A model generated the notes under the pieces. It was not told where the DNA came from. It worked only from the letters and a program-made list of their open reading frames with translations, and searched no databases. Source: Escherichia coli (GTDB lineage: Bacteria; Pseudomonadota; Gammaproteobacteria; Enterobacterales; Enterobacteriaceae). Taken from it: a stretch of DNA of 64,000 bases. The position numbers and the translations under genes are program-made. The stretch lies in NCBI RefSeq assembly GCF_024502345.1, contig NZ_JALDNN010000003.1. The stretch is one strand, 5' to 3'. Below are positions 41,205-63,015 of this stretch, piece by piece; within the stretch, counting starts at the first letter, position 1; the number at the start of each line of letters is the position of its first letter.

Positions 41205-41230
41205 AAAAAAAAGTAACTTTTTTTCCGGGG
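41205..41230. promoter_or_regulatory. palindromic motif copy R0 (AAAGTAACTTT core + TTTTCCGGGGG)
   Basis: about 90 bp upstream of ParB-like gene start; see motif finding. Confidence 0.45.
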
Positions 41231-41324
41231 GTTATAGTACGCGATCCGTCCGTTTTAAATTCTCGCTAAGGAGGGCAAATTTCACTTTAGTGTGAAAAGC
41301 GGGTACATAAAGCAGGAATATGTC

Positions 41325-41348
41325 GAAAAAGTTACTTTCCCGGTTGCC
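41325..41348. promoter_or_regulatory. palindromic motif copy R1 GAAAAAGTTACTTTCCCGGTTGCC
   Basis: 23/24 match (one indel) to copy at 59289-59312. Confidence 0.5.
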
Positions 41349-41875
41349 TGAAAAAATGCCGTTGCAGCAAACACAAGGTGTGAACACCCCCCCCGCCCCG
41401 GCGGCTCCGGGCAAAGGAGTATCCGATGAAGCTTTCCCGGCAGACCACAAATGATACGGCTGTAATCGAAGGCACCCGCAGATTACCGACCATATCGCCT
41501 CCCAGCGAGCCACCGAAGCCAAAAAAGACGGCATGAATTTTAATGCAGGCGTTGAGCTTGCATCTAAAAGGAACTGTGCAACGAGGACAAACATTACCAT
41601 GATTGAACACCGCACAGAGATGCGCCAAACGGCCATTAAATCGCTTCAGGAAGCCGAAGAAGCATTGACGGCACTGGCTATGTCCTATGAGCTACAGCCC
41701 GATGATAAGGCCAGTTCGTGTCATCCACGGACCGGTACTCTCTCCACGGCCAGCCAGGTACGGAAATTGCGCCGTGTCGTCGAAAAGCAGAAAACTTGAA
41801 ATTCGACAAGGCGGCGGGTAGCTATTTCCTGCATGTACAAACTAACAAGGGTTTAGCCGACGATAGAAAGGAAAA

Positions 41876-41907
41876 AAGGGTTTCCCCGACCGGAGAAACC
41901 CTTTTCT
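41876..41907 (+). terminator. rho-independent-type hairpin (GGGTTTC...GAAACCC + T-run)
   Basis: AAGGGTTTCCCCGACCGGAGAAACCCTTTTCT. Confidence 0.45.
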
Positions 41908-41944
41908 AAAGGTGCCATTAGCTTGCTGGCCCACATTCTGAAAT

Positions 41945-41964
41945 GAGGGGGGTCGCCCCCCCTC
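41945..41964. terminator. G/C-rich perfect hairpin GAGGGGGG-TCG-CCCCCCTC just downstream of hok
   Basis: Read directly; 6 bp from hok stop codon. Confidence 0.4.
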
Positions 41965-41970
41965 TTTCAG

Positions 41971-42129
41971 CTACTTACCGGATTCGTAGTCCATCACAGC
42001 CGACACTTCCCGTGTACCGTCTTTCAGCCTCAGTTCGCAGAGCGAATTGCGCGTAAGCCAGGTGAATATCAACAGCGTAAGACATACTATCAATACGCAC
42101 AAAACAACGGGTTGGTTCGGCAGTTTCAT
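41971..42129 (-). CDS. hok: Hok/Gef-family type I toxin (52 aa)
   Basis: [52 protein letters not shown]; AAGGAG SD; ORF-track 100-aa version is an in-frame upstream extension. Confidence 0.85.
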
Positions 42130-42486
42130 GGCCTTCTTCTCCTTGCATTTAAGCGGGTAAGAGGCTACTCTGAATGTGACTAGCATACAGGGGCCTCGGG
42201 TTAATTTGAAAAAATTACTCGGGGCTTTCTGCTTTTTACCACAGTCAAACAGTGAATCTGCTGGCTGGGGCAAAAGCCTCCAGCACCGAGGTTATTATAC
42301 CACCCCGCCCCTTTTAAACGAACAGATCGTTCTCCTAAATATTTAATAAGTAAGTATTTCAGGTTTTGCTGCTTCGCAGGCTGTAACAGCAGGTGTCTGA
42401 CGTAATAACTGATTAAACAGACGGATTCGAATCTCAACACTCAACGACGCCAGCTCGCCTGTTCCCCCGCTTCTTTCCGGCTGTAA

Positions 42487-43092
42487 TCAGTCCGTTTTCG
42501 TACCAGCGATCAGTGACAAACGGTGAGCACGAACACTACTGTGCCGGAGGCTGTCCGGGTAATGGGCGATTTTCTCCAGTTCCTCATCGAGGCGGGTATA
42601 CGTCAGCCTCCTGATTTTCAAGATTTCCTTGTGAAGCCAGCGTTTGATAAAGGGATTGCCGGAAAGCAGTACCAGGTCTGCATCCTCCACTTCATCAAAA
42701 AGCCAGACGGGTTTTGCCGGAGTAAGGCGGTAGAGCCAGGTGCGGGAAAACTCCCCCGTTGCAATCAGAAACCAGACAACCATGCCAAGTGCGAACTCGA
42801 TGACCAGCATCAGGGTAAACTGAATATCCCGGACGTCAGGCTCTCCGGTAAAGCTCATTAGGCGGTCGCCAGTTGCCAGACGCTGAATAATACAGACCAG
42901 CATCAGCAGAGCCAGTAACAGCGCCATGAGCAGCCCGCCGTTCACTTCAAAAGTAGCTTTCTGGACGCGATCAGGCGGCACCTGCTTACGGTAGCGGCCG
43001 ACCACATCACCAATCATTACCCTGATGGCTATGCGTTCTTCATCGACCGTTGTTTCGGTAAATCCGGACGGGCCCGTTTCTGTTTGATTCAT
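42487..43092 (-). CDS. hypothetical membrane protein (201 aa, 2 predicted TM helices)
   Basis: Hydrophobic segments LLMALLLALLMLVCII and FTLMLVIEFALGMVVWFLIA. Confidence 0.5.
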   Translation of the reverse strand: MNQTETGPSGFTETTVDEERIAIRVMIGDVVGRYRKQVPPDRVQKATFEVNGGLLMALLLALLMLVCIIQRLATGDRLMSFTGEPDVRDIQFTLMLVIEFALGMVVWFLIATGEFSRTWLYRLTPAKPVWLFDEVEDADLVLLSGNPFIKRWLHKEILKIRRLTYTRLDEELEKIAHYPDSLRHSSVRAHRLSLIAGTKTD

Positions 43093-43305
43093 GTACCCTC
43101 TCCTCTCTCTGAAAAATAATGGTAAGACGCAAGCTGATCATACCAGGTGAGCAGGAGTGGTTTTGTCGGTTAAAGGCTGGAAAAAAACGGTTAAAAAAAG
43201 AGGGAAATGACAGCAAGAAGGTGGGATGCAGTAAGCGGCTTTGGTTCCCTCCGGTTCTGTGGGGAGGAAACGGCCAGAACAGCAGACCGATACGATGGGC
43301 GGGCG

Positions 43306-43587
43306 CTATTTTGTATCCAGAATTCGTGCCTTTTCTTCCCGCGTCGCCAGTCGGGCACTTCCGGAACGGTCGCGGATCAGCAGTGGCTTTTCCTTTTTCC
43401 AACCAGTGATAGCCGTTTCCCCGAAACGACGCGGTGCATTGCCATTCCAGCTGGCAATCACGTGATTATCGTGTACTTCCTTGATGACGACAGAATGAAG
43501 AGTCACCGTCTTAATGGTGGTGTTTCCCATTTTGGTCCGGGAGAGTGACCAGACGGTCATCCCCACCTCCAGCTGACTGAGTTTCAT
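43306..43587 (-). CDS. hypothetical protein (about 93 aa)
   Basis: Internal Met MKLSQLEVGMTVWS... taken as start. Confidence 0.4.
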   Translation of the reverse strand: MKLSQLEVGMTVWSLSRTKMGNTTIKTVTLHSVVIKEVHDNHVIASWNGNAPRRFGETAITGWKKEKPLLIRDRSGSARLATREEKARILDTK

Positions 43588-43718
43588 CTTTACTCCGGTA
43601 ATATCGGGATACATCATTAAACGACGTGGAGACGTAGGTTAGCATAAGCACTCACAGCGGATACTGCCGCCAGATAACAGGGTGAGGTATCCGCCATGAG
43701 CAGTCTTTACGGCTGGCG

Positions 43719-43889
43719 TTATTCGGCCAGGGCGCGGGTAATAGACGCACGCTGACGCTGGCGCTCAGCCTTACGCTGGCTGCGGCGATATAGCGGCTTC
43801 GCGGCAGCGTAGCGACAATCTTCCGGGTGGTACCAGCAACAGCCGCAGGGCTCAGGCTGGGGTTTTCCGGCAAGTCCGAATGGTTTCAT
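43719..43889 (-). CDS. small Cys-rich ORF (56 aa), not in ORF track
   Basis: MKPFGLAGKPQPEPCGCCWYHPEDCRYAAAKPLYRRSQRKAERQRQRASITRALAE; AAGGTGA SD 5 nt upstream; the overlapping ORF-track frame (43652-43873) lacks a comparable start context. Confidence 0.35.
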   Translation of the reverse strand: MKPFGLAGKPQPEPCGCCWYHPEDCRYAAAKPLYRRSQRKAERQRQRASITRALAE

Positions 43890-43930
43890 AATGTCACCTT
43901 TTAAATGGAATAATGTTCAGGTCCCGTCCA

Positions 43931-44254
43931 TCAGGCCACGGGTTCATTAATGAAGCGGCGTTGCATAAACAGGTACAGATAACCCTCTGGCGAGAACATA
44001 CAAAGATTCTCGGTAATACAGGCATCGAGGTACTTCGTGTCGCCAAGGAGTCGCTTAATGACAGCCAGCTGGTTAGCCGCAGACTGAATCAGCGGATAGC
44101 CATTCACGGCACGATGAATACCTGAGTGGAATAACGAACGAGCCTTTCCAATCTTTTCCCGGGTTGCGTCCATTTCCATATCGATAACAGACTGACGCGC
44201 AACATTAATAGCATTGCCGGATAACTCCGCGAAGCTAACCAGAGGCTTATTCAT
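43931..44254 (-). CDS. hypothetical protein (107 aa)
   Basis: ORF with SD-like GGAAGGAG upstream. Confidence 0.45.
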   Translation of the reverse strand: MNKPLVSFAELSGNAINVARQSVIDMEMDATREKIGKARSLFHSGIHRAVNGYPLIQSAANQLAVIKRLLGDTKYLDACITENLCMFSPEGYLYLFMQRRFINEPVA

Positions 44255-44439
44255 AAAAAACTCCTTCCAGGTATGTGAGCTTATTATATCAATACGGACT
44301 TTGCCCCAAACAACCCGACTCGAAATATTTTGGAAATTACTCTAATAACTAAAAATGGCACCCGGAAAATAGAATGAATTTATTTTAAGCTTGCCGAACA
44401 TGGCTGGCGGCGGAATTAAATTTGGGTAATGACTCCAAC

Positions 44440-44943
44440 TTATTGATAGTGTTTTATGTTCAGATAATGCCCGATGACTTTGTCATGCTGCTCCACCGAT
44501 TTTGAGAACGACAGCGACTTCCGTCCCAGCCGTGCCAGGTGCTGCCTCAGATTCAGGTTATGCCGCTCAATTCGCTGCGTATATCGCTTGCTGATTACGT
44601 GCAGCTTTCCCTTCAGGCGGGATTCATACAGCGGCCAGCCATCCGTCATCCATATCACCACGTCAAAGGGTGACAGCAGGCTCATAAGACGCCCCAGCGT
44701 CGCCATAGTGCGTTCACCGAATACGTGCGCAACAACCGTCTTCCGGAGCCTGTCATACGCGTAAAACAGCCAGCGCTGGCGCGATTTAGCCCCGACGTAT
44801 CCCCACTGTTCGTCCATTTCCGCGCAGACGATGACGTCACTGCCCGGCTGTATGCGCGAGGTTACCGACTGCGGCCTGAGTTTTTTAAATGGCGGAAAAT
44901 CGTGTTGAGGCCAACGCCCATAATGCGGGCGGTTGCCCGGCAT
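44440..44943 (-). CDS. insB: IS1 InsB (normally expressed as InsAB' by -1 frameshift)
   Basis: [27 protein letters not shown]...; differs at several residues from copy 2. Confidence 0.95.
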
Positions 44944-45137
44944 CCAACGCCATTCATGGCCATATCAATGATTTTCTGGTGCGTACCGGGTTGAGAAGCG
45001 GTGTAAGTGAACTGCAGTTGCCATGTTTTACGGCAGTGAGAGCAGAGATAGCGCTGATGTCCGGCAGTGCTTTTGCCGTTACGCACCACCCCGTCAGTAG
45101 CTGAACAGGAGGGACAGCTGATAGAAACAGAAGCCAC
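44862..45137 (-). CDS. insA: IS1 InsA
   Basis: [43 protein letters not shown]... Confidence 0.95.
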
Positions 45138-45290
45138 TGGAGCACCTCAAAAACACCATCATACACTAAATCAGTAAGTTGGCAGCATCACCGAAAATAA
45201 AATAGAGAGAGTTTTCAATCCGCATGACTTTAAAAAAGACAATTTTTAGAAATAAGCCGGATAAAAAAATAGCTTTATCCGGCACTCATA

Positions 45291-46241
45291 TTACAACCAG
45301 TTCTTCCGCTTAAAGTACAGATACGGTGCCAGGCCCGCGAGGATCATAAAGATAATCGCGGCAGGGTAGCCGAAGCTCCACTTCAGTTCTGGCATAAACT
45401 CAAAGTTCATGCCATAGCTGGAAGCAACGAGCGTCGGCGGCAGGAATACCACGGATACCACCGAGAAGATTTTGATGATGCGGTTCTGCTCGATGTTGAT
45501 AAAACCCATTGCCGCCTGCATCAGGAAGTTCACCTTCTGGAACAGGGATTCGTTATGCGGCAGCAGGGATTCGATATCTCGCAGGATTTCACGCGCCTGC
45601 TCCAGTTGCCCACCCGGTAAACGCGCTTTACGCACCAGGAAGTTGAGCGCGCGCTGGGTATCCATCAGACACAGGCGAACTTTCCAGCCGATATCTTCCA
45701 GTTCCGCCAGCGTGGAGAGCGCCTCGTCGTACTCATCGCCCTGATGCCCTTCCATAATCACCCGGCTCAACTGCTCCAGGTCGCTATAGATATTTTCAAT
45801 TTCATCTGCCAACTGTTCGATTTTGGTTTCGAACAGATCCAGCAGCAACTCGTAGGCGTTACCGTCTACCATCGACTGGCTACGGGCACGCATACGATAC
45901 AGACGAAAAGCGGGCAGTTCACGCTCACGCAGAGTAAACAGACGACCATCACGGATGGTAAATGCCACAGTGGAGTTACCGGCGTGATCTTCCGCATCTT
46001 CAAAGAAGAAGAAGGAGTGAATATGCAGGCCGTCGTCGTCTTCAAAGAAACGTGCCGATGCTTCGATGTCTTCCAGTTCCGGGCGGGTTGCCAGGCTCTG
46101 GCCAAGTTCAGATTGTAAGCGCAGTCGCTCGTCGTCGTCCGGTTCGACAAGATCAATCCATACTGCATTTACAAGGGGTTGTGACTCTTCGACTTCCAGC
46201 CGGGTCAGTCGGTTATTTTCCAGTTGAAATGCGCTCAGCAT
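45291..46241 (-). CDS. corA: magnesium/cobalt transporter CorA
   Basis: [31 protein letters not shown]...[17 protein letters not shown]...YFKRKNWL, essentially identical to enterobacterial CorA; terminator hairpin GCCGGATAAA...TTTATCCGGC downstream. Confidence 0.95.
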
Positions 46242-46640
46242 GACCGGGACTCCCAATGCTTAAAATATCGGACAGTTCGGTGGGCACACAGAAACAAATT
46301 GGGTTTCAGACCATTAAACAGCCTGACTCAGCGCGACGGGAAAAATTGAGGTCGCTGACAACCGCTAAGGCTATCAGCAAAAAGGGATAGCCTTAGGAGT
46401 TGATCCTGGATGACAGGATAGTGAGCCAGTATCTACTGGGTGTGTCCAAGGCGAATGTCCTCTTAGAGTGATCGTGCGCGCATGTTACGCCAGCAAAATT
46501 TTGCCGTCAACACGCAACAGAACACCACAGAACAATAGTTGAACTTCGCGCTTTTTGGTACTCGTCAAGGTCGCTAACAGGATAAAAAAATCCCACATCC
46601 AGGACCTATAATGGCGCATCAGCTACTCATTGGTAAAGGA

Positions 46641-46940
46641 ATGATCACCTTGAATCTCAAACGGATTTTTCTCGCCCTCACCTTACTTCCCTTGTTTGCT
46701 GTTGCCGCTGATGATTGCGCACTCTCAGATCCGACGCTGACCGTACAGGCGTATACCGTTAATCCTCAAACAGAGCGGGTGAAAATGTACTGGCAAAAAG
46801 CCAATGGCGAAGCGTGGGGAACGTTACATGCTCTGCTGGCGGATATTAATAGTCAGGGTCAGGTGCAGATGGCGATGAACGGCGGCATCTTAAATTTGAC
46901 GGTTTTTGATATAAAATATAGAAAGAAGGAGGTTTTCTGA
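46641..46940 (+). CDS. signal-peptide protein (99 aa), possibly a truncated chromosomal gene at an island junction
   Basis: MITLNLKRIFLALTLLPLFAVAADD...; stop embedded in hairpin AAGGAGGTTTTCTGAATACCTCCTT. Confidence 0.4.
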   Translation: MITLNLKRIFLALTLLPLFAVAADDCALSDPTLTVQAYTVNPQTERVKMYWQKANGEAWGTLHALLADINSQGQVQMAMNGGILNLTVFDIKYRKKEVF

Positions 46941-46959
46941 ATACCTCCTTCACTGGCGC

Positions 46960-47166
46960 TCAGTTCGAGAATACGTTAACGCTGTACCGTTTACCGAGCA
47001 CCTCGGCAGTGGTATCGACAATTTTCTGAATATCATCGGCAATCGCGGGTTTACTGAATGCGACGGTGTGCAGTTCACCAGCCTGTTCCGCCGTCGCACC
47101 ATCATGAAAGCGGCTGGCATCGTAAAGCTGGACCCGGAGTGTCCGGGTATAATCGACATGGCCCAT
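46960..47166 (-). CDS. small hypothetical protein (68 aa)
   Basis: ORF in unidirectional array; C-terminal block resembles the two 74-aa paralogues. Confidence 0.4.
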   Translation of the reverse strand: MGHVDYTRTLRVQLYDASRFHDGATAEQAGELHTVAFSKPAIADDIQKIVDTTAEVLGKRYSVNVFSN

Positions 47167-47200
47167 TATTCCTCTCCTGTTCAGTCAGGCGCTATACGCG

Positions 47201-47425
47201 TTAATAATCACTTTCTTCCGGTTGCGGCTGGGTGACAAACTGGTACTTCACCCCATTAGGGACGCCAACGGCTTTTGCTACAGATTCACACAGCAGCGAC
47301 AGGTCATTCAGAGTCATCGGATATTCGATATCGACGGAATATAAGGCCCCGGCGTTCTCGGCCTCTTCGATATTTTTATACTGGGCACTGAAAATGGCTA
47401 TGGTAGAGATTTCAAGGTTATGCAT
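47201..47425 (-). CDS. small hypothetical protein (74 aa), paralogue of 53302-53526
   Basis: Shares 19-residue block YPMTLNDLSLLCESVAKA(V/L) with 53302-53526 product. Confidence 0.5.
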   Translation of the reverse strand: MHNLEISTIAIFSAQYKNIEEAENAGALYSVDIEYPMTLNDLSLLCESVAKAVGVPNGVKYQFVTQPQPEESDY

Positions 47426-47478
47426 GAGTCAGTCCTTGTTAATAAAAAAGAAGCCACCGTAAGGTGGCTGAATAAAGG

Positions 47479-47685
47479 TTAATGGACCTGGCTGGCCTTT
47501 TTTTCCGCGTTCTTGTTGTAATCAACGCGGGCAATAACGACGGCAGCGGCCAGGAGTGCAGCGAGACCGCCGTAGAATACTGGTCGGGAGATATCGACGA
47601 ACATATCGCTCAGGTTATCAACGCCGAGGAGAAATACGCAGATAATGACGATAAAGCGAACAGGTTTGCTGTAGAACAATTTCAT
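47479..47685 (-). CDS. small membrane protein (68 aa)
   Basis: Two hydrophobic helices. Confidence 0.4.
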   Translation of the reverse strand: MKLFYSKPVRFIVIICVFLLGVDNLSDMFVDISRPVFYGGLAALLAAAVVIARVDYNKNAEKKASQVH

Positions 47686-47884
47686 CAGGAGCTATCCTTC
47701 TGGGGTGAAATGACACCAGCATTACACCATATCAGATGCCAATTTTTTTTCGGTAACGGGCCTATTTTGACAAGAAAAAAGACACATCAGGGAGGCAATG
47801 ACGAGAGTATTTTCGAGGTGCCTATGGCCTGTCACTTCCTGAACTCAGGAAAAGAACGATGCTGTAGAACACAATCGAAATATA

Positions 47885-47900
47885 GAAAAGTAACTTTTCC
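47885..47900. promoter_or_regulatory. palindromic motif copy R4 GAAAAGTAACTTTTCC
   Basis: Intergenic, 200 bp upstream of 47685 gene start. Confidence 0.45.
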
Positions 47901-48080
47901 ACCGACGATATGTCCGGCGGCAAGTTATTCTTATGCAGGGCACAAATCAGTGAATTGGGTTCCGCGCGGGAAAGTCAAAAAAACTTGCATGTCGTTCCGG
48001 ATGCCAGGCGACGTAGCACATAGATTTGGGCCTGTGTAAGCGGGGAGCTGGGACGTTTTGTGTCTGCCATAATGTTCCTT

Positions 48081-48341
48081 TTATAACGAGGGCTGTCCGG
48101 CTGACAGATTAGCGGACAGACCTGAAAATAACGTGCATATCCAGCACCTGGCTGAATCCCTGAGCGAGGCAAATGCCTTTACTCTTCCCCCTCCGACAAC
48201 AACAAAAATGCGTTGAGCTTCCTCTTCGGCCTGTTCATCAGTCATGCTTTTCTCGCGGATGTGCGAAGTAAACAGGCTCCAGTTTGCAGCGATAAAATCA
48301 CGTACTTGATGCATTTCCGAATTCTCAGCGTCAATAACCAT
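48081..48341 (-). CDS. hypothetical protein (86 aa)
   Basis: ORF in array. Confidence 0.4.
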   Translation of the reverse strand: MVIDAENSEMHQVRDFIAANWSLFTSHIREKSMTDEQAEEEAQRIFVVVGGGRVKAFASLRDSARCWICTLFSGLSANLSAGQPSL

Positions 48342-48429
48342 TTTTAGTGTCCTGTGTCTTAAATAAGGTCCGCCCTGTTAATAGATCAGGGACGGACTGT
48401 TTAAGCGAGATAGCCAGCCTGTGCCGTGG

Positions 48430-48936: not shown

Positions 48937-49234
48937 CCGTAGTCAGCATCAGATATCGGGTGGCCAGTAGCAACTCTTTGACGTCAGCAGTTGAAACCTC
49001 CCCTTTGCCTTCTACCGCGTCCTGCAAACGCTGACGCGTCGCCTGAATCGTCTCTGACGACAGTGACGCCAGTTTGCTCAATACAGCGTTAGCTTTTTCC
49101 ACAGCGGGATACAGGGACTCTGAGGTGGTATTGTCTACATCGTTATCGAAAAACAGGTCAGACTCCATATTAATATTGTCTTCGAGCCAGCTGGTAAGAA
49201 TATCAAGTAAAGACATAACTTTATTAATCTGCAT
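48926..49234 (-). CDS. hypothetical protein (about 102 aa)
   Basis: ATG at 49234 with GAGGG SD; ORF-track N-terminal extension unlikely. Confidence 0.45.
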   Translation of the reverse strand: MQINKVMSLLDILTSWLEDNINMESDLFFDNDVDNTTSESLYPAVEKANAVLSKLASLSSETIQATRQRLQDAVEGKGEVSTADVKELLLATRYLMLTTDGE

Positions 49235-49823: not shown

Positions 49824-49908
49824 TAGAATTGCGTCCCTCTTTCGGTGGCAGAGTGTCGGTCAGGATGCCTGTGGCGAGGCAACTACAGACAGAATTTAAC
49901 ACAAAAAA

Positions 49909-53612: not shown

Positions 53613-54077
53613 TTAATCGGGTTGTGACTTATCATTTTCTCCAACCGAAGTGCTGTCGAGAAATGACCATTCTTGTTTGGGGCTTTTATATAATGCACTA
53701 GCCTCAGTACTCATCCACGACTCACAGGCTTTATAAGTCATGCCTTCCTCTCTAACGCGGTCCTTAAAATACGCCCAGGCTTGCAGATCAAGCGGCTGAT
53801 ACTCTTTCAGCGACTGGTCAAGCCTTTCCTTCCAGATTTTCTTCCGATGAGTAAAATGAGGAAAAGCCAGGAATGCATAACTACCTGCAACAAAAAAAAA
53901 GAACAGGAGTCCGCCCCATAGAGAATGTTTGAAAAACACCAGTCCTGGGAAAATCCATGCCACAATGGCAACAAATAAAAGAAGGTGCTCCTTCCCAGTA
54001 GGTTTATTAAAATGCCAGGAAATTGCAATACACTTTAATTTACTAAAGTGATTTTGTTTCTCCTTAATATCGGTCAT
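53613..54077 (-). CDS. membrane protein (154 aa)
   Basis: Two long hydrophobic segments. Confidence 0.5.
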   Translation of the reverse strand: MTDIKEKQNHFSKLKCIAISWHFNKPTGKEHLLLFVAIVAWIFPGLVFFKHSLWGGLLFFFFVAGSYAFLAFPHFTHRKKIWKERLDQSLKEYQPLDLQAWAYFKDRVREEGMTYKACESWMSTEASALYKSPKQEWSFLDSTSVGENDKSQPD

Positions 54078-54123
54078 ATATCAGTCCTTACTTATAAAAA
54101 AATGGTTATTATTAGTCTGATGT

Positions 54124-54137
54124 AAAAGTTACTTTTC
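54124..54137. promoter_or_regulatory. palindromic motif copy R5 AAAAGTTACTTTTC
   Basis: 47 bp upstream of 54077 gene start. Confidence 0.45.
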
Positions 54138-54259: not shown

Positions 54260-56689
54260 TCACGCCAGCAGGCGGACCATACGTTTCAACAGAGGCCTTA
54301 ACAACGCCGCCGTCCTCTCCCGGCATTCATCCACATGCCGGAACCCCGTCTTTTTCGAAGACTGGGGGCCGGATAACATCCGCAGCTCCCAGATGACTTC
54401 CCGTAAGGTTCCTTCGCGCTCCGGCGAAATACACCCGGCTAATGTCTCCAGAAAGCGTTTTCTTACGGCCCGGTAATACAGACGTTCTTCCGGTTGCTGT
54501 GACGAAATCCGCAGGTTACAGAGGGTCAGGACAGCGTCAAGAGTCCTTGCCTTCAGTTCGTCTCCCGTCCGGGCCAGATGTAGCTGTTGTTCTGTCTCCA
54601 GTTGCGTCGTTATCCACCCCCCCAGAGGGGTTTTGTTGTAGGTGTGCAGTGCCACACAGGCCGCAACACAACACCAGAAGCGCAGTTTCTGCCGCTGCCC
54701 CCGCAGTTTGCGGGCTACGAGCAAGCGATAATCGCTGTCGGTCAGGATCTTGAAACGGCGGCTGGCGAGCAGAGACGGCAGCGGCGTCTGGTCGTTAATG
54801 CCAAGACGTGAATAGGCCTGCCCGCGTTGAGCGAGTCGATGGTACACCGCACCTTTCCCCCGCGAAATTCGGACGGCGCCGTATCTAAGCAGGTACTGTG
54901 CCGCCGCCACAGGGGTAAACTCACCGTCAGACACACGCTGGCGTAATCCGTCATATTCATGCCAGATAATCCAGGATGCCGTGTCTTCATCGACCGTCAG
55001 CTCATCCTCTTCTTCGAATGCAACGATGTTCAGGCCTTCCCCGCTACTCATCAGACTGCGGGAAGCTCGCTCATCCTCCCGACCGTCAAAATAGGCTATT
55101 TCGGATGACGGATCGGACAGCCCGTCAAATGACGTCCCGATACGGCCTTCCGGCAACTTCATCCAGCGTGGTGCTGGCATCGGCGTGCGGGGTACTGGTT
55201 GCATAGCTGGCTCATCGTCGAGAAGATCCAGTGCCCCCCCTTCCCACACCTGGCGGTAAAGTTCAATGGCACGAAATGGGCGCGGGTTAAAGCAATGCAG
55301 TGACCAGAGAAAGTCGATATGCAGCACGTTAGCCTCCTGCACCAGTCGAAACTGCGGCTCCGACATGCGGCGGTTATGCGCGGTATCTTCGATCTCGCCT
55401 GAAAGTAACTTTTCATGCACCGCTGCGGCCCGCTGAGCCTCCACGTAATCGAGGCTGCAACAGATATGGAACAGTCTTTCGGTCAGGGACGACGAGAACA
55501 CATTGGGCTGAAGACGCACATACCCGCCCTCAAACACTTTGCGTCCGATATAATCCCGAAGGCTCCAGTCGTACTGAATTTTGGTCAGGAAACGCTGAAG
55601 GCGGTTGAGACCAGCCTGGTAGCCGTACTTCTCAGGGTCAGTGCGGAGTAAGGTTTCCATCGAGTGATCAATGCCGACGGCGCAGCATAGCGAGCATCCA
55701 TAGCGAGCGCCGCAGGCAGAAGACCGGACAGTGGATTTCTCCGGCGTCCAGATACATTCCCCGGTCGCGTCTTTGTAAAGCGTGGCGAGGCTGAAGTTGT
55801 CCGGCAAAAAGCTTGGCAGCGGAAATCGCGCCAGAGAACCACAGGCCATCAGAAATGACCAGATATCCTGTGCCCGCCACTCTTTCACCGGGTACAGTTC
55901 GCCGCCGTGCTCCGTGAGCGAGACGCTGTCCGCCTGCCCGCCCATTCTTAGGATGTTGTCTGCCCGACGGGCGCTCTCATCATCGCGGGAACCCAGCATC
56001 AGGCACACTTTGTTGCGGACAGAAGCAGGTGCATTTTTCAGATAACGGGCTTTGGCCTGGCGCAGTGGAGAACGCTTTAGATCTGTAGCGCATTGACGCG
56101 TAGAAGAATTTGTCCAGGTTGGAAGTCCACGCCCGGTCAGAATGCGTCCGACCCAGCTCTGGGTCATGGACGGGCGGGCCACAAGGACGGTCAAAGGCAG
56201 TTCTTGTTCGGCAATAAAGGCTCTGAGCTGGCTGAGAACCTGCGTGGCCTGATGATGCATCTCAGGGTTTTCAATCAGGGTGTCAGACATCTGAATGAAG
56301 TGGTGCTGGCTGACGTTCGACCCGTTTCGTACTGCACGGATCAAGGCCATAAGGAACAAGTGCAGTAGCGAGTGAGAGTCTTTCCCGCCGCTGTAGCCGA
56401 CGCACATGGTCCAGCCTTCGGTAATCGCATGATAAATGGCACTGGTTGCCGTCGTCACGCGCGAAGCGAGACTGATCGGCTCACCGGCATCAGTATAATT
56501 CAGATCCGCATCGGTCTTCAGTGTCTGCCAGACATCGCCCCATTTATCCTGCGTCAGAATGGCAGCGTTAGCCGCCTCAGAAAATTGAATTTCTGAGGGT
56601 AATTCAAGGAATGTTTCTTTCATTTCGATATACATATTATTTCCTGAATTTGGCTTTCGCTGTATTGTCGCGATATTTATTAAATCCAT
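54260..56689 (-). CDS. large PP-loop ATP-pyrophosphatase (PAPS-reductase / DndC-like) domain protein, 809 aa
   Basis: PP-loop GYSGGKDS near residue 100; Cys cluster ACGARYGCSLCCAVG; long C-terminal extension of unknown function. Confidence 0.75.
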   Translation of the reverse strand: MDLINIATIQRKPNSGNNMYIEMKETFLELPSEIQFSEAANAAILTQDKWGDVWQTLKTDADLNYTDAGEPISLASRVTTATSAIYHAITEGWTMCVGYSGGKDSHSLLHLFLMALIRAVRNGSNVSQHHFIQMSDTLIENPEMHHQATQVLSQLRAFIAEQELPLTVLVARPSMTQSWVGRILTGRGLPTWTNSSTRQCATDLKRSPLRQAKARYLKNAPASVRNKVCLMLGSRDDESARRADNILRMGGQADSVSLTEHGGELYPVKEWRAQDIWSFLMACGSLARFPLPSFLPDNFSLATLYKDATGECIWTPEKSTVRSSACGARYGCSLCCAVGIDHSMETLLRTDPEKYGYQAGLNRLQRFLTKIQYDWSLRDYIGRKVFEGGYVRLQPNVFSSSLTERLFHICCSLDYVEAQRAAAVHEKLLSGEIEDTAHNRRMSEPQFRLVQEANVLHIDFLWSLHCFNPRPFRAIELYRQVWEGGALDLLDDEPAMQPVPRTPMPAPRWMKLPEGRIGTSFDGLSDPSSEIAYFDGREDERASRSLMSSGEGLNIVAFEEEDELTVDEDTASWIIWHEYDGLRQRVSDGEFTPVAAAQYLLRYGAVRISRGKGAVYHRLAQRGQAYSRLGINDQTPLPSLLASRRFKILTDSDYRLLVARKLRGQRQKLRFWCCVAACVALHTYNKTPLGGWITTQLETEQQLHLARTGDELKARTLDAVLTLCNLRISSQQPEERLYYRAVRKRFLETLAGCISPEREGTLREVIWELRMLSGPQSSKKTGFRHVDECRERTAALLRPLLKRMVRLLA

Positions 56690-56811
56690 TTAATATCTTC
56701 AGCGCAATATGTGAAGCTAAAAATAGTTAAATTGAAATCATGCCAATTTAATTAAATAACACTGAACAAATAAAATTACGCGGCAATAAATATATTATGT
56801 TCTCCACGCTC

Positions 56812-57258
56812 TCACGAATACTGCTGGGTAATTAAAACCGTCGCATTTGATTCCAGCTCTGCCAACGGAATTAGGGGCGTATTGAGCATCATGTCATCGC
56901 CGCAATGACGGGGTACAGCCGTCAGATGAAATGATTCTTTCATGACCCGGATGGAAGTTGTTTCCGTGCGGCAGGAGGGCATTACGTCCCGGAGCATCGT
57001 TTCCTGTCCGCTGCTGTCACTTTCAATAAACGCAGCCTGCGACATGAGAACCTCAATGTCCTCTTCCAATGTTTCGGACCAGTGGCAGTCATAGAAGAAA
57101 AACTCGGCGGCGTACAAATCATTTTCTTTCACGTATGCCGCCAGTTCACGGATACGCTTAGCCAGCGACGTATCAATGGAAAAGAAGACGCTTTGCGGGA
57201 CATCACTCGCAAATTCATTGATGCAGCTAGCGGACAAAATCAGGATTTTATTGGTCAT
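56812..57258 (-). CDS. hypothetical protein (about 148 aa)
   Basis: Internal Met MTNKILILSASCINEF... Confidence 0.45.
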   Translation of the reverse strand: MTNKILILSASCINEFASDVPQSVFFSIDTSLAKRIRELAAYVKENDLYAAEFFFYDCHWSETLEEDIEVLMSQAAFIESDSSGQETMLRDVMPSCRTETTSIRVMKESFHLTAVPRHCGDDMMLNTPLIPLAELESNATVLITQQYS

Positions 57259-57305
57259 TTTCAGCTCTCCATGCCACCGGCTGTTCCGGTGGCAATCAGG
57301 GATTA

Positions 57306-58112
57306 TCAGGCAGTCACGGGGCACAATTCGTCAAGTGAAGGCAGTAATTTGCTCAGGCTTTCGTACACGACGGGCATCAATTCAGTGACGCTGTGAAGCG
57401 CCATGCTGGTATTGTCTTCTTCGCTGAGAATGATAACTCCATCCTCACCAGGATTGTCGGGCGTGCTCTCGTCAGAGGCCAGGCGGTGGCGTGCAACGTC
57501 ATAAGCCGATTCTGATTTTTTGCAGCTCATCAGATAGCATTGAGTGTATGTGTATTCGTGGTTGTACTGGTTCACTTTCACCAACGCATACTGAACACCG
57601 GCATCATGAGCTTCGTTCATCAGGCGAGAAAAATTAAAGCCTTCTTCGTAGTGGTGTGTATCTTTAGTCACCACAATAGTCGCACCGCCGAACTCGTTTT
57701 CGCGTGGTCGGTCGCAGACGAAAGCGGCATTGATTGTGACCATCTCAGGCAGGTTAAACACCGACAACACGGCAGTTGTTACCGCGATAGCGTGGTCGAG
57801 GTTAATGCTTTCATCATGGCAGATTGCCAGGCCTTTACCGGTGATTTCCGCTTTGAGTTCCAGCTCGTAATTGTCTTCTGGTGACTCCGACTGACCAAAA
57901 GTCGGCTCAAACGGATCGCACTCCGGGTGGTTCTGAATAATACCCAGGACAAGCAATTCAGTGAGGGAACACTCTGAAACCGGTTTAGACAGCAAGTGTT
58001 CACCTTCCGCCACATCCGTGTCTGTAACATACGCAATCGCGTCCAGTGCCATCTGTGCCTGTTCCTGTGAACAGAGAATTGTGAAGGATGCCTGAGTGTA
58101 ATTGTTCGCCAT
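57306..58112 (-). CDS. hypothetical protein (268 aa)
   Basis: ORF in array; acidic. Confidence 0.5.
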   Translation of the reverse strand: MANNYTQASFTILCSQEQAQMALDAIAYVTDTDVAEGEHLLSKPVSECSLTELLVLGIIQNHPECDPFEPTFGQSESPEDNYELELKAEITGKGLAICHDESINLDHAIAVTTAVLSVFNLPEMVTINAAFVCDRPRENEFGGATIVVTKDTHHYEEGFNFSRLMNEAHDAGVQYALVKVNQYNHEYTYTQCYLMSCKKSESAYDVARHRLASDESTPDNPGEDGVIILSEEDNTSMALHSVTELMPVVYESLSKLLPSLDELCPVTA

Positions 58113-58339
58113 TGCATAACTCCTTATTTAATTAAATGTGATTGCTGTCTGTGAATAGATAATATCAAAACAGATACCTGCACCTAATAACCAATAATGA
58201 AATATGTTCGAAATTTTTATAGAGCAGACAGCGCCATATTTAATAATCCAACTTTTATTCTGGATACGGTGTAAAATAAATATACGGGAAAACAAAAAAC
58301 CGCCACAAGGGCGGAATTTATTAGACGGGAAAGATTTGG

Positions 58340-58603
58340 TTATACGGTATGTGTCAGGGAGGAAGCAATGAGCCTGTCTGGTAACAGTGATTGTAGGGAC
58401 GCAGACGAAATAACAAGCACCTGATCCAAGTGCGCTATACCTTCGTCGATATGTTGCTGGAATGCCGCTTCAGCTTCACCGCAGGAGTCCGCTTCGACCA
58501 GCATCACCTCTTCCTCATCATCAAACATCATGCGGCCTGAGATAATATACAGTCGGCTTAAGTCCGGGGTATTTACAGCGATGCCCTGTTCGTTAATCAT
58601 CAT
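58340..58603 (-). CDS. hypothetical protein (87 aa)
   Basis: ORF in array. Confidence 0.4.
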   Translation of the reverse strand: MMINEQGIAVNTPDLSRLYIISGRMMFDDEEEVMLVEADSCGEAEAAFQQHIDEGIAHLDQVLVISSASLQSLLPDRLIASSLTHTV

Positions 58604-58659
58604 TTTTCTCCGCCTTCAATTTTTAAATTTGTCAGTTCTGCTACGTGTAAAAAACAGCA

Positions 58660-58992
58660 TCAGCCCTGTAAACCCGGACAGGTATCAACGTAGCTCATTG
58701 GTTTGCCGATCGCGGCGCTCAGGCGAAGGATTTCGCCGATGGAGACGTACCGAAGCATTTCCGAACGCCCGTGTTTCTGGTATTCATCCACCGACATAGT
58801 GCGCCAGTCCTTGTGCGGTGCGGTTTTGCACAACTGCCAGTTGTCGGCAGTGGTCGGGCGACGCAGGACATATACACCCAGCGAAGGCGTGAGGCCACTG
58901 CCGAATGCCTGCTCCACCACAATACGTACTTCAGAGCCGTCGGGGCGTTTCAGTGTCTGAGTAATTTTAGTAATGAGCTGTTCGGATTCCAT
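58660..58992 (-). CDS. hypothetical protein (110 aa)
   Basis: ORF in array. Confidence 0.45.
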   Translation of the reverse strand: MESEQLITKITQTLKRPDGSEVRIVVEQAFGSGLTPSLGVYVLRRPTTADNWQLCKTAPHKDWRTMSVDEYQKHGRSEMLRYVSIGEILRLSAAIGKPMSYVDTCPGLQG

Positions 58993-59288
58993 ACTATTAA
59001 CCTCGACCGTCAGTTGGGTTGCTGTAGGGATATTTTACCAAAGTCGGCTCTCTGGCTAATAAGTAAGAAGTGATTTTTTTCATTCATTGAAGTTTCTTTC
59101 ATATGGAATGAATATTAATTATTTAAACTGACTCGGCCTATTTTAATTATTATTAATCAGGGTATTTAATGTGCAAATTGGCAGGGCGCTGAATTACCGG
59201 GCATCCATTGCCCGGACAGTTTATTAAAAAAAACTGATAATGCCCCGCCGGAGAATTACGCCAATTCCTGTGAAGGCATGGTCTGGCT

Positions 59289-59312
59289 GAAAAGTTACTT
59301 TTCCCGGTTGCC
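59289..59312. promoter_or_regulatory. palindromic motif copy R2 GAAAAGTTACTTTTCCCGGTTGCC
   Basis: In 500-bp ORF-free region upstream of 58992 gene. Confidence 0.5.
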
Positions 59313-59491
59313 CTGCCTTGATCCCGTATCGTTTATACCGGTCTGCTCTTACATCCTACCTGGGCAGCAGCTGGCTACGGTGATCGGGTATTAAAATAGA
59401 ACCGGTCTGTTTTACCGCAGATTCAACGCCCCGCACCTAGCGTAAAATCGCCTTTCCCGGATGCCCTCCTTAGTCGTCCGGCACGATGGCG

Positions 59492-60653
59492 CTACTCCCA
59501 GCGATAAGGGGTAAAATAGTCCTCGTTAACAGCAAGAAATTCGGTCAGGGAATGCATCGCCTTCGTGTCATATGCCGTCACAATAAAACGGTATCCGTCC
59601 ACCGTTTCGATGTAGCTGATCCCCCGTGGCGTGCAACTGGATTTCACAACTTCCGCCGTCATCATAAACTGCCCTTGCGGGAATTCCGGTGACAGGTAGA
59701 TAAAGCCAGTGGTGGCTGATGACGGGTTGGCATTCATCAGCACGCTGTTAAATTGCTTTCCGTGCCGCGCCGGAATCAACGCGCTCCCCGCTGTCGCCTG
59801 AGTCATCAACTGGCGGATCAGGGTTTCCTCTTTATCTGAGCTGTAGGCGCGAACATCATTTTCAGCCCCGGAGCGTGAGTAGACGCCGACATGAGCAAGA
59901 CGTCGGTACTCGTTACGCATATAGGCATGACAGGATGCACCGGCTCGCCCCTGAAGAGTGACGCCAAAGTCTTCACATAACATCAGTACCTGGCGCAGGT
60001 TTTTGTCATAGACCGTGGCAGAGAGCGCCAGGTTATAGCTGATGAATGTCAGCTCAAAAACCCGGGTATGTGCGTCACTAAGGTGTGCCTCCATGCGGAT
60101 CACTGGTTTCTCCGTCATTGGAAACGGCGTACCGGCCAAGCAGTACGAGGTAACATCGCTAAAACACTCGTCGATCACACTGGCAATGACCGTATCGGCG
60201 TCAATGACAGCCGGAGCTGGAACATAAATCTGAAACTGTCCTTCAGTGCCCGGTTGGATCAGGACGGGGTATAGACGCGGGGAATTGAGTTGTTCGCAGT
60301 CGGCATTGATCAGTTCTGTCCAACCGGGTTTTCCGGTGGGAGCATCAAGGCGAAGACCCAGGTTATCGCAGAAGTCGACGATCTGGCGGGAGTGCTCCAC
60401 CATCACTGCCCCGGAGAGTGTCAGACCGTGCGTAACCATCTGCATCTCACTCGTCCGGGTCTGGGAGTTCTGGGACCAGGGCTGTAATGAAAGCGTCGTC
60501 CGACTTAAGGAGGGAATGATGGTTTCATTCAGAGGTTCAATAAGCTGGCAATGCGCATACAGCCGGGTGGCGAGGAAGTCAAATATGAAGCTTGCCTGTT
60601 GTTTTGTGCTGGCCTGAATATAAAACATCGCATCCATGCCTGAATCCCGGGAT
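59492..60653 (-). pseudogene. 395-codon gene of unknown function split after codon 7 by IS1; first 5 codons and start of the TSD remain at 61436-61450
   Basis: Removing IS1 and one TSD copy restores ATG AAA CTT TTC GGT ATT TCA TCC CGG... (MKLFGISSRDSGMDAMFYIQ...); ORF-track start MAASPG is encoded by the IS1 terminus. Confidence 0.7.
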
Positions 60654-60717
60654 GAAATACCGGGTGATGCTGCCAACTTACTGATTTAGTGTATGATGGT
60701 GTTTTTGAGGTGCTCCA

Positions 60718-60993
60718 GTGGCTTCTGTTTCTATCAGCTGTCCCTCCTGTTCAGCTACTGACGGGGTGGTGCGTAACGGCAAAAGCACCGCCGGACATCA
60801 GCGCTATCTCTGCTCTCACTGCCGTAAAACATGGCAACTGCAGTTCACTTACACCGCTTCTCAACCCGGTACGCACCAGAAAATCATTGATATGGCCATG
60901 AATGGCGTTGGATGCCGGGCAACAGCCCGCATTATGGGCGTTGGCCTCAACACGATTTTACGTCACTTAAAAAACTCAGGCCGCAGTCGGTAA
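60718..60993 (+). CDS. insA: IS1 InsA
   Basis: Near-identical to copy 1 InsA. Confidence 0.95.
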
Positions 60994-61415
60994 CCTCGCG
61001 CATACAGCCGGGCAGTGACGTCATCGTCTGCGCGGAAATGGACGAACAGTGGGGATACGTCGGGGCTAAATCGCGCCAGCGCTGGCTGTTTTACGCGTAT
61101 GACAGGCTCCGGAAGACGGTTGTTGCGCACGTATTCGGTGAACGCACTATGGCGACGCTGGGGCGTCTTATGAGCCTGCTGTCACCCTTTGACGTGGTGA
61201 TATGGATGACGGATGGCTGGCCGCTGTATGAATCCCGCCTGAAGGGAAAGCTGCACGTAATCAGCAAGCGATATACGCAGCGAATTGAGCGGCATAACCT
61301 GAATCTGAGGCAGCACCTGGCACGGCTGGGACGGAAGTCGCTGTCGTTCTCAAAATCGGTGGAGCTGCATGACAAAGTCATCGGGCATTATCTGAACATA
61401 AAACACTATCAATAA
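60912..61415 (+). CDS. insB: IS1 InsB
   Basis: [25 protein letters not shown]... Confidence 0.95.
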
Positions 61416-61458
61416 GTTGGAGTCATTACCGAAATACCGAAAAGTTTCATTTTTTACC

Positions 61459-61755
61459 TTAATGGATGAGCGATTTATAATCATGCGCCGACAGGTGGAC
61501 GTTATGTACGCCATCGTTCCACTCAAAGAATAGCCGATATTTTGAATTAACTCGAATGGAAGAATACCGGTTTGCGGTCATTCTTAAGCGTTCGTACCGC
61601 AAACTACCAGATAACAATTCGCGTTCGTTTTTAACATTATTTAACGTTTCCAGTCTGCATGAAATCGCATTAATCAGTTCAGCAGGAATGCCTGCCGTGG
61701 ATTTTCCATTACGGAAAAACTTTTCCAATCGCCTGTCTTTAAATGAATGGATCAT
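61459..61755 (-). CDS. HigB-like toxin (plasmid-maintenance killer protein family, RelE/ParE fold)
   Basis: [38 protein letters not shown]...SIRVNSKYRLFFEWNDGVHNVHLSAHDY aligns with Rts1 HigB pattern (MIKSFKHKGLKLLFEKG...P...RL...SITVRANWRITF...DY). Confidence 0.65.
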   Translation of the reverse strand: MIHSFKDRRLEKFFRNGKSTAGIPAELINAISCRLETLNNVKNERELLSGSLRYERLRMTANRYSSIRVNSKYRLFFEWNDGVHNVHLSAHDYKSLIH

Positions 61756-61818
61756 ATTTTCCTCCGTAACGAAATGAGTTTAAATAAATAAGAATTAAAA
61801 AAGCCTAAATCTAATTTA

Positions 61819-62286
61819 TTACATCCCGAGGATTCTGGCTGCGACCGTCAGTTGTTTATCACTTAATGGAAATTTGCGTGATAACGTCGACTTCAGGCTG
61901 TTCAAAAAACTGTTCTCGCCGTCTTGCTGCGTGATGGCGTCCACCAGTTCTTGGTGGTTCTGACACCAGAGGTTGAACGCGGAAGTCTTTGATTGAACAG
62001 CACGTTGACGCTCTGCTGCCTGAGCGGCTGAGATCTTGCGAGCAGCTTCTGGGTATATGCGATACAGTGCAGTCAGGGTGTAACAGGTACGGGTAGTGAC
62101 CAGGCTATAGCCAGTGGCATTACAGGCAATACAGCGGCTCTTATAAAAGTGATTGCGTTCGCCACGTCCATTGCATTTATTGCAAGTAACACGGTAAATA
62201 TATTCCCCGGTGCCTTTTACTGAATCAATACACTTAATCTTAGCGTTATCGATTGCCATTCCGCTACGGTCAAAGTATTTATCCAT
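61819..62286 (-). CDS. zinc-finger protein (155 aa), CxxC-x-GxG repeats
   Basis: CNKCNGRGE...CIACNATGY DnaJ-type zinc-finger-like spacing. Confidence 0.5.
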   Translation of the reverse strand: MDKYFDRSGMAIDNAKIKCIDSVKGTGEYIYRVTCNKCNGRGERNHFYKSRCIACNATGYSLVTTRTCYTLTALYRIYPEAARKISAAQAAERQRAVQSKTSAFNLWCQNHQELVDAITQQDGENSFLNSLKSTLSRKFPLSDKQLTVAARILGM

Positions 62287-62608
62287 TTTTGATTCCTCAG
62301 GTTTGGTCTGAAGTAATAATGACAGATTGGCCTCGCTGGCTAATAACCTGAACGAACGTTTTTTGAAAATAAATCAGGAAGGATGATTGAGATGATTTAT
62401 ATATGCAGGATTCAATTTTAATGGAGGGTATTTTCAGAATTATCTGTTTACAAAAAACGAAACAAATCCTAATGAGGCATTTATTGCATCACAATAAAAG
62501 TGATTGCTTTTCACTCATTTGAGTAGCGATGCTTAAGTATTTATCCGTTTTAAGGTATAACAGCAGCGTGATACGACTCAGGGAATGCCTGTCCGTCACC
62601 TTAATGAT

Positions 62609-62626
62609 GCTTTACTTCCGGTTGCC
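62609..62626. promoter_or_regulatory. motif copy R3a GCTTTACTTCCGGTTGCC (half-palindrome + CCGGTTGCC extension)
   Basis: In 860-bp ORF-poor region. Confidence 0.35.
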
Positions 62627-62999
62627 GAAACAGTCCATATGGCTGACATGTATTACACGCACGGTCTAACGCAGTTCCGGGGGGTGGCACAGCGGCGTGA
62701 TGCCGCTTTAATCTGGAAAACGCAGGCATCTACTGGTGCCTCAGGATCGCGGCACTCGCAAGCTGAAACACCAGAGCCTGTTCGTCTTCCGGCTGTATCG
62801 CTCGTCCCCGTCTACAAAACCCGTCTCATCCGCAGGTATCGCTGGCGCACTCCCAGACGGTTAGAGGCTTTCGGGAACTGCCTGGGTCAAAGAACACCGG
62901 CGTTCAGGTAGCTGTTGAAATGGACATCTACACGTTTTTGTTCAAGTGATTCAGTTGTGGTGAGGGCATAACGGGTAATGCCCTCCCGTGAAGCCCTGA

Positions 63000-63015
63000 G
63001 AAAAGTTACTTTTCC
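63000..63015. promoter_or_regulatory. palindromic motif copy R3b GAAAAGTTACTTTTCC
   Basis: 130 bp upstream of 63146 start codon. Confidence 0.45.

Follow-up and report, generated by a model that had tools for sequence, protein, structure and literature searches.

A dispersed palindrome of the IncHI plasmid backbone and an orphan ParB/KorB-like protein as its candidate binder

Dispersed palindromes bound by proteins of the ParB family are known from several replicons. The orphan ParB paralogue Noc of Bacillus subtilis has about 70 scattered palindromic sites. KorB of plasmid RK2, a sliding clamp that depends on CTP, silences distant promoters (PMC11790492), and the ParB-like clamp BisD of ICEclc, which is loaded at intragenic palindromes, activates transfer promoters tens of kilobases away (PMC12409273). 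On IncC plasmids, about 14 copies of parS are spread over the backbone, mostly in intergenic DNA, with four in open reading frames (ORFs) and one overlapping the -10 of PparA, and the KorB-domain ParB of parAB053 binds them in electrophoretic mobility shift assays (PMC10954446). Here we analyse a palindrome that recurs in 64,000 nucleotides of Escherichia coli DNA (contig NZ_JALDNN010000003.1 of RefSeq assembly GCF_024502345.1, hereafter the window), which proved to be IncHI1-type conjugative plasmid DNA (MOBH relaxase, MPF_F) broken up by accessory segments. By comparison with these systems, the IncHI palindrome most likely fits a known kind, i.e., the dispersed binding-site set of a ParB-family plasmid regulator, and the candidate binder is an orphan ParB/KorB-like protein of 401 amino acids (aa).

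The palindrome core AAAGTNACTTT is found in nine exact copies in the window, where 0.04 are expected, and none of 100 dinucleotide-preserving shuffles reached nine; the 15-mer GAAAAGTWACTTTTC with at most two mismatches gives 10 matches against 0.16 expected. The enrichment over a shuffled background, which an earlier note on this DNA had put forward as a check, is therefore strong. A frequency table of 102 sites pooled from seven sequences defines the conserved unit as a 13-bp palindrome, A-AAAGT-W-ACTTT-T, in which W is the centre base; there is a weak G/C preference at ±7 and zero information past ±8, and the similarity between the window copies likewise stops at about 13 bp. The full form proposed earlier, GAAAAGT(T/A)ACTTTTC, is thus right in its inner 13 bp, but its outer G/C is present at only ~42% of the pooled sites (the site can also be written as AAAAGTWACTTTT or AAAAGTTACTTTT). 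Six of the seven copies reported in the earlier note, all of them said to be intergenic, were recovered within 1-3 nt of the positions given there, at 41208, 41326, 47885, 54123, 59289 and 63000, and they do lie between genes, 53-304 bp 5' of annotated start codons. The seventh, at 62609..62626 on the plus strand, reads GCTTTACTTCC and is not a palindrome, having only the octamer CCGGTTGC in common with the others. Three further exact copies had been missed, one (core at 55402) within the range of that note and two (18335 and 19848) outside it, and all three are inside genes.

The alignment with the IncHI1 plasmid R27 assigned 31.6 kb of the window (49%) to the plasmid backbone and left 32.4 kb unaligned. 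All nine copies fall in the aligned part and none in the accessory DNA (p = 0.0017), so that the plasmid-like and island segments which the palindrome had been thought to connect are one IncHI backbone. The complete R27 carries 46 exact copies, 22 of which are intergenic although non-coding DNA makes up 20% of the plasmid (p = 3e-5). The other 24, which occupy both strands and all three frames, are within genes; three copies lie between convergent gene ends, and the distance to the next start codon ranges from 53 to 464 bp; to call the sites promoter-proximal is too narrow a description. In more diverged plasmids the core is present 14 times in a 41-kb IncHI2 locus and 21 times in a 41-kb Klebsiella IncHI1B/FIB locus, and in both the de novo palindrome count found it as the only enriched odd palindrome, while relatives of the Yersinia, Lelliottia and Leclercia type have 5-7 core copies per 21 kb. 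The motif is therefore present at the homologous loci of related plasmids, often at the identical position. No copy was found in 40 kb of the IncC plasmid backbone, where the same count, serving as a positive control, blindly recovered the published parS as AACTTTCACATGTGAAAGTT, seven times in the locus of pC1394 (L129; 292, 3876, 4335, 9650, 12986, 24030 and 27445, one directly 5' of parA). The scan of genome contigs with the 15-mer gave, among the matches listed, isolated chance matches only, with at most two core copies per locus examined.

Between R27 and IncHI2, whose flanking sequences are 70-80% identical, six of the seven aligned copies retain all 10 specified bases and the centre base changes freely; by our own calculation, the chance of such retention is ~1e-5 or less. 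At the synonymous third codon positions of intragenic copies, 22 of 22 are conserved inside the motif versus 301 of 684 (44%) in the flanking coding sequence (Fisher p = 2e-8). The two copies in traD keep identical offsets, 55 nt to the stop and 299 nt to the start, in all three lineages checked (R27, IncHI2 and Lelliottia). The third-codon conservation, the use of all three frames and the intact state of six of the seven aligned copies indicate that selection acts on the palindrome DNA itself, also within genes. Since the information is confined to a perfectly two-fold-symmetric 13-mer, the sequence points to a dimer on duplex DNA, and the proposal of a shared cis element and a dimeric regulator for many backbone genes gains support from this strict symmetry. 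Very probably, the palindrome is the specific site of a plasmid-encoded dimeric DNA-binding protein. We also considered a polar reading related to Ter sites and Tus, as the motif contains GTAACT like Ter sites and R27 encodes a Tus homologue; it was rejected because the two-fold symmetry and the lack of a clean switch in centre-base orientation along R27 argue against a monomeric polar binder of the Ter type.

The gene at 39910..41115 (minus strand), which corresponds to R0104 of R27 by gene order, encodes the 401-aa protein. It consists of an N-terminal ParB-CTPase-type domain with the motifs GFNTR and GACRIRA (i.e., GxxR), a helix-turn-helix (HTH) at residues 149-209, a disordered acidic linker at residues 253-330 and a helical C-terminal domain. 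The HTH_ParB family of Pfam matches with E 3e-5, TIGR00180 matches partially, and phmmer identifies the ParB DNA-binding domains of 6s6h and 6t1f. In the AlphaFold2 model, which was built on an alignment of 18 sequences, the predicted local distance difference test (pLDDT) score is above 90 over residues 13-250 and 60-80 in the C-terminal helical region, which is conserved. All 29 Foldseek matches in the PDB at E<=0.001, with ~180-245 columns aligned, are ParB, KorB, Noc or Spo0J, and the best superposition is on RK2 KorB in the KorA/DNA complex 8qa9 (template modelling score 0.63-0.65, root-mean-square deviation ~5 Å). A ParB/Srx (CTPase-type) fold followed by an HTH is thus predicted. G99 and R102 of GxxR are invariant in the 18 sequences, and orthologues down to 36% identity retain S-x-x-H-[LIV]-R-[QK] where the recognition helix starts, which matches the invariance of the site. 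In the published expression data, R0104 is expressed at a level similar to that of parA and parB, with ~2,200 units at 25 °C as well as at 37 °C (PMC7366339 supplement). The protein is an orphan: parA is not adjacent to its gene in any of six lineages, the canonical ParA-binding motif (regex [LFI]G[KR]G[LFI]) is absent from it, and PADLOC, NCBIfam and PHROGs searches with it, its small neighbours and HtdK, HtdF and HtdA gave no defence or KorA-like match. Its family is homologous to an orphan "ParB-like regulator" of IncC, not to the IncC ParB. The idea that AAAGTGA is a family-wide half-site, common with the promoter of this IncC orphan, was dropped, as IncC has 8 occurrences versus 7.4 expected.

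Palindrome copies are located 5' of the 401-aa gene in six of six lineages, at about 80-260 bp. In the window, the promoter-proximal copy AAAAAGTAACTTTTT (41208..41222) is centred 100 bp 5' of the gene start inside an A-tract/T-tract, and the second, AAAAAGTTACTTTCC (41326..41340), lies 218 bp 5' of it and adjoins the octamer CCGGTTGC. The IncHI2 plasmid has two copies at the same distances, 100 and 218 bp, the latter being position 19774 of locus L003, and a copy equivalent in position to 41208..41222 is also found in the IncHI1B/FIB, Yersinia and Lelliottia loci. In the Klebsiella locus (L004), six copies within ~750 bp 5' of the gene form the densest cluster of that locus; in the other three lineages the copies are at -84 to -252. 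The simple sigma-70 and terminator scan revealed no consensus promoter adjoining the copies. Judged by eye from conserved -10-like elements, the copies recur ~45-50 bp 5' of these elements and would be centred roughly at -55 to -62 from the guessed start sites, in A/T tracts.

KorB and its 12 OB operators (TTTAGCSGCTAAA) on the IncP plasmids RK2/RP4 offer a close parallel. OB sites are likewise odd-length palindromes with a degenerate centre base, scattered over the backbone at variable distances from promoters and present also in the transfer/oriT region, and the fold and domain order predicted for the candidate (N-terminal domain, HTH, long flexible linker, C-terminal domain) are those of KorB. 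The IncHI site, however, has a different sequence and about four times as many copies, half of them intragenic; its gene is not part of a korA-incC(parA)-korB operon, no KorA-like partner was found, and the protein is without GERR and ENxxR, its binding and CTP clamping being only putative. The IncC/IncA parS (AAAC-TTTCACATGTGAAA-GTTT) belongs to a related super-group (MOBH, MPF_F) and is also scattered over the backbone, chiefly between genes but in part within ORFs, and it too has a copy at the promoter of the gene for its binder (in IncHI, for the candidate binder). In contrast to IncHI, the IncC binder is a true partition ParB with canonical GERRWRA and ENIQR, encoded next to parA, whereas the IncHI partition ParB has a separate tandem-repeat array and the candidate belongs to an orphan family. 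With BisD and bisS, the IncHI pair has in common an orphan ParB-like protein on a conjugative element and palindromes within genes, and for BisD only the minimal GxxR is stressed (PMC12409273), but BisD has two loading sites and an extra activator domain and needs BisC, whereas the sites of the IncHI candidate number dozens and it has no domain of this kind. Noc, which is among the fold matches, is similarly an orphan paralogue without ParA and has many dispersed palindromes (NBS) in and between genes; unlike the IncHI protein, it is a chromosomal membrane-tethering cell-division factor, and nothing suggests that function in IncHI. It is the combination of an orphan with a degenerate pocket, lacking a ParA or KorA partner, with so many and so often intragenic sites that sets the IncHI case apart from the known examples.

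The site is a selected, symmetric, backbone-specific DNA element, accompanied by a ParB/KorB-fold orphan gene whose promoter always carries it. Confined to the backbone, it is a multicopy palindrome found both near promoters and at a distance, including the promoter of the candidate regulator, which is the pattern of dispersed operators. Taking all possible roles together, we lean towards the 401-aa protein as the binder, although both this identity and the effect on transcription, be it repression or activation, are inferred from the sequence. Our more specific suggestion, that it is a KorB-like regulator binding dispersed palindromes of the IncHI backbone, is held tentatively and falls a little short of an even chance. 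The mechanism would follow the models of KorB/OB of RK2, the scattered parS of IncC and BisD/bisS of ICEclc: the two HTH domains of a dimer would read the two AAAGT half-sites, promoter-near copies would serve as operators, among them the one at the protein's own promoter and those in the divergent traH-trhR region around oriT, and copies in genes and between gene ends could be extra binding or loading points, so that one protein might span the backbone of 180-300 kb. Possible, yet rather doubtful, is the most far-reaching version, in which an orphan ParB-fold protein with a degenerate nucleotide pocket and ~46 palindromes controls or organises the whole 180-300-kb IncHI plasmid and lies beneath its plasmid-wide derepression by htdA mutation.

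Several observations weigh against the 401-aa protein as a KorB-like regulator. The motif check did not find GERR of Box II (GERRxRA, with GxxR as its minimal form) or ENxxR of Box III, i.e., the nucleotide pocket is degenerate, which makes a clamp mechanism of the KorB type uncertain; a published survey of orphan ParBs on mobile elements notes frequent divergence of Box III (PMC12704722). In the most distant orthologue only a part of the recognition helix is conserved, no KorA-like partner was found, and the site lies upstream of the guessed core promoter and does not overlap it. The link between protein and site is circumstantial. The intergenic DNA of R27 has about one copy per 1.7 kb, so that finding a copy 5' of the gene in each lineage surprises only moderately, and IncHI1 and IncHI2 cannot be counted as independent samples. 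Moreover, the site is invariant while the protein falls to 36% identity, so a more conserved backbone protein could fit equally well, and the core repeats of oriT contain the 9-mer AAAAGTGAC of a palindrome half, which raises the possibility of a relaxosome protein as the binder. Finally, the best tblastn match to the protein in NZ_LR890350.1 (L002; 300 kb, IncHI1A-typed), a plasmid that contains window positions 1-21387 at 100% identity, has 35% identity over 55% of the query. It is probably the 385-aa paralogue, and the plasmid may be without a 401-aa orthologue, which would then be a natural deletion.

The alternative that survives best, a minority possibility to be taken seriously, is that the site is bound by another IncHI protein, i.e., the 385-aa paralogue, the partition ParB, a relaxosome or oriT accessory protein (TraH/MobI, TraJ, R0121), TrhR/TrhY or an uncharacterised backbone protein. 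Such a binder would fit a site that stays the same while the 401-aa protein diverges to 36% identity between lineages, and the structure of oriT would also agree. Between traH (mobI) and trhR, the core of oriT holds eight alternating half-sites AAAAGTGACCCTATG in an array of pairs of the form CATAGGGTCACTTTT-N-AAAAGTGACCCTATG (L007 8415-8585, i.e., R27 108415-108585, and L003 36520-36665 in IncHI2), nearly identical in IncHI1 and IncHI2 and flanked by two palindrome copies. The first nine bases of the half-site equal one palindrome half, but the long half-site is confined to oriT, being nowhere else on R27, and its arrangement is opposite (everted); a relaxosome protein is a residual candidate. 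The 385-aa ParB-like paralogue is encoded divergently from a Dam-family methyltransferase gene, and ~90 bp 5' of its start there is a one-mismatch variant, AAAAAGTACCTTTTT, perfectly conserved at R27 L005 45096-45106 and at L130 ~4650 and forming the only well-conserved island of this promoter region between IncHI1 and IncHI2. The paralogue, however, differs from the 401-aa protein at the recognition-helix start, so its helix is not of the type found together with the site. For the partition ParB there is a separate repeat array: in R27, where parAB sits away from the 401-aa gene and two partition systems, Par1 and Par2, are present, ~30 tandem repeats of 52-54 bp (GGGGTTAAATGCCACGCTACGCGACCAGC...) fill L005 25602-27846 in the unannotated 2-3 kb 5' of parA, with no palindrome copy among them or 5' of parA. 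This array is probably the Par1 centromere or an incompatibility determinant.

The scale of the TrhR/TrhY circuit also speaks for another plasmid protein, as the htdA mutation derepresses 139 of 181 R27 genes via TrhR/TrhY (PMC7366339), which would suit a site of 46 copies, and one copy is located 81 bp 5' of trhR and another within it. On the operon map of R27, in which trhR is R0123 and traH is mobI, the F and Z operons are reported TrhR/TrhY targets, F being the standard reporter and H and AC counting with them among the TrhR/TrhY-activated promoters, and HtdA is reported to act at the protein level (PMC7366339). The palindrome is found at -192 of the H (traH) and -287 of the AC operons, but the upstream regions of the F, Z and AN operons contain no copy even at one mismatch, and TrhR and TrhY match no Pfam family, with no recognisable DNA-binding domain there, and no PDB sequence. 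The lack of a copy at F, Z and AN together with the lack of a known DNA-binding domain indicates that the palindrome is not the TrhR/TrhY box. Its binder may instead control trhRY, and any link of the 401-aa protein to TrhR/TrhY is speculative.

The same 401-aa protein could also use the sites not as operators but as centromere-like or DNA-organising elements of the Noc/NBS or parS type, serving condensation, positioning, segregation or incompatibility, which we consider improbable. The intragenic half of the copies and those between convergent gene ends would agree with such a role, as would the precedents of Noc, a ParB paralogue with many dispersed sites, and of the IncC sites, which are true parS with centromere-type incompatibility (PMC10954446). 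A second dense cluster in the Klebsiella locus (L004 163-1419), five copies in 2 kb just 3' of the RepB (IncFIB/HI1B) initiator gene, may be a sign of a centromere-like or replication-proximal role, and in R27 copies flank both RepHI1 genes. The missing parA neighbour and ParA-binding motif are at odds with it, R27 is already provided with Par1 and Par2, and the intergenic enrichment and the placement near -10-like elements point to promoters. Beside these sites, R27 has 43-bp iteron-like repeats (L005 38840-39006) next to a RepB-family initiator gene (39480-40355), and these include three to four tandem occurrences of AAAGGCACTTT, which differs from the core by one mismatch.

A host transcription factor or nucleoid protein of enterobacteria recruited by the plasmid is very unlikely. 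The motif is identical in plasmids of Escherichia, Salmonella, Klebsiella, Yersinia, Lelliottia and Leclercia, as would be expected of a host factor, but its absence from 32 kb of chromosome-derived and accessory DNA in the window and from the 40 kb of IncC backbone, a plasmid of the same host range, argues against one. In outline the 15-mer has a loose likeness to a Fis site (G-N3-R...Y-N3-C), yet the strictly conserved part is the inner AAAGT/ACTTT and not the outer G/C, nucleoid proteins have degenerate sites whereas 10 bases are exactly conserved here, and we know of no E. coli regulator with this consensus. Known single-stranded DNA (ssDNA) promoters are long imperfect hairpins of about 100-300 nt, and a structured ssDNA element, which the earlier note had offered as an alternative, for instance a Frpo-like hairpin promoter on the transferred strand, is hardly credible: the copy-bearing arrays of many small co-oriented genes by Tra1/oriT, including hok and HNH genes, do resemble a leading or anti-defence region, but the similarity ends at ~13 bp, the palindrome folds only into an A/T stem of 5-6 bp with a loop of 3 nt (dG -1.7 to -8 kcal/mol, z 0 to -3.5, values that are inconsistent between sites) to which the flanks contribute inconsistently, a perfect palindrome is identical on both strands and carries no strand polarity, and a leading-region element would not be expected to have copies all around the plasmid and within tra genes.

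Neither the motif nor a function of the 401-aa protein is described for IncHI in the searchable literature, which does not cover the older R27/R478 sequence papers. IncHI plasmids bring multidrug resistance to typhoid Salmonella and are vehicles of mcr-1, tet(X4) and NDM genes in Enterobacterales, and their regulation is known only as H-NS/Hha and the TrhR/TrhY-HtdA circuit, with undefined DNA targets. A regulator of the dispersed palindromes, with copies at the trhR promoter and on both sides of oriT, could explain the joint response of most R27 genes (PMC7366339) and, if true, would be the missing DNA-level layer beneath the unexplained derepression by htdA mutation. It would also add a large and clinically relevant case to the ParB-fold regulators that act at a distance, such as KorB, BisD and the IncC ParB. 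Similarly to SGI1, which mimics IncC parS, use or mimicry of the site suggests an incompatibility-based way of curing IncHI plasmids. The motif is in any case a simple sequence marker of IncHI backbone DNA, and a conserved plasmid-wide site with a strong candidate binder provides a concrete and cheap experimental handle.

The remaining copies in the window each have a counterpart in R27. The exact 15-mer GAAAAGTAACTTTTC at 47885..47899 (R27 85552) is intergenic, ~207 bp 5' of a small minus-strand gene. The copy TAAAAGTTACTTTTC at 54123..54137 (R27 72184) lies 53 bp 5' of a 154-aa gene (53613-54077, minus strand) and directly 3' of a PAPS-reductase-family gene (54260-56689, minus strand), and the latter contains the intragenic copy at 55400..55414 (R27 70907), the sole aligned copy lost in IncHI2. 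Exact 15-mers are also found between genes at 59289..59303 (R27 67018), 304 bp 5' of the gene 58660-58992 (minus strand) and adjoining CCGGTTGC, and at 63000..63014 (R27 64084), in an 859-bp divergent intergenic region 139 bp 5' of a plus-strand gene starting at ~63146. Two copies lie in genes at the other end of the window: an exact 15-mer at 18333..18347 (R27 142406), in the 3' end of a DNA cytosine methyltransferase gene (18184-19611, minus strand), 156 nt ahead of the stop and adjoining CCGGTTGC, and the copy at 19846..19860 (R27 140893), in codons 5-9 of a thermonuclease-family gene (19834-20349, plus strand).

The 24-bp extension noticed earlier at two copies is real at 41328 and 59291 and occurs also at 18335, but it is not a general feature: CCCGGTTGC adjoins 3 of the 46 R27 copies only and is not found in the IncHI2 or IncHI1B/FIB loci. 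As a part of the palindrome it was rejected, being really the separate octamer CCGGTTGC that abuts a few copies. The octamer is itself enriched in the window, with 8 occurrences versus 2.4 expected (0 of 100 shuffles reached 8), all on the plus strand (18348, 19472, 27813, 41340, 47218, 54490, 59304 and 62618), of which three alone abut a palindrome. R27 has 20 octamers, 16 of them on one strand, mostly as GCAACCGG on the sense strand of the local genes; effects of codons or composition could account for the octamer, or it could be a second motif, of a polar kind. The accessory block at 27083-38370, of low GC content (36-40% over 28-38 kb), is free of palindrome copies. It contains two ISNCY-family transposase genes (27083-28519 and 32435-33793) around unknown genes and three tandem ORFs (34054-35577, 35534-37210 and 37207-38370), the middle one matching a site-specific integrase, and this trio resembles a trio-of-recombinases element.

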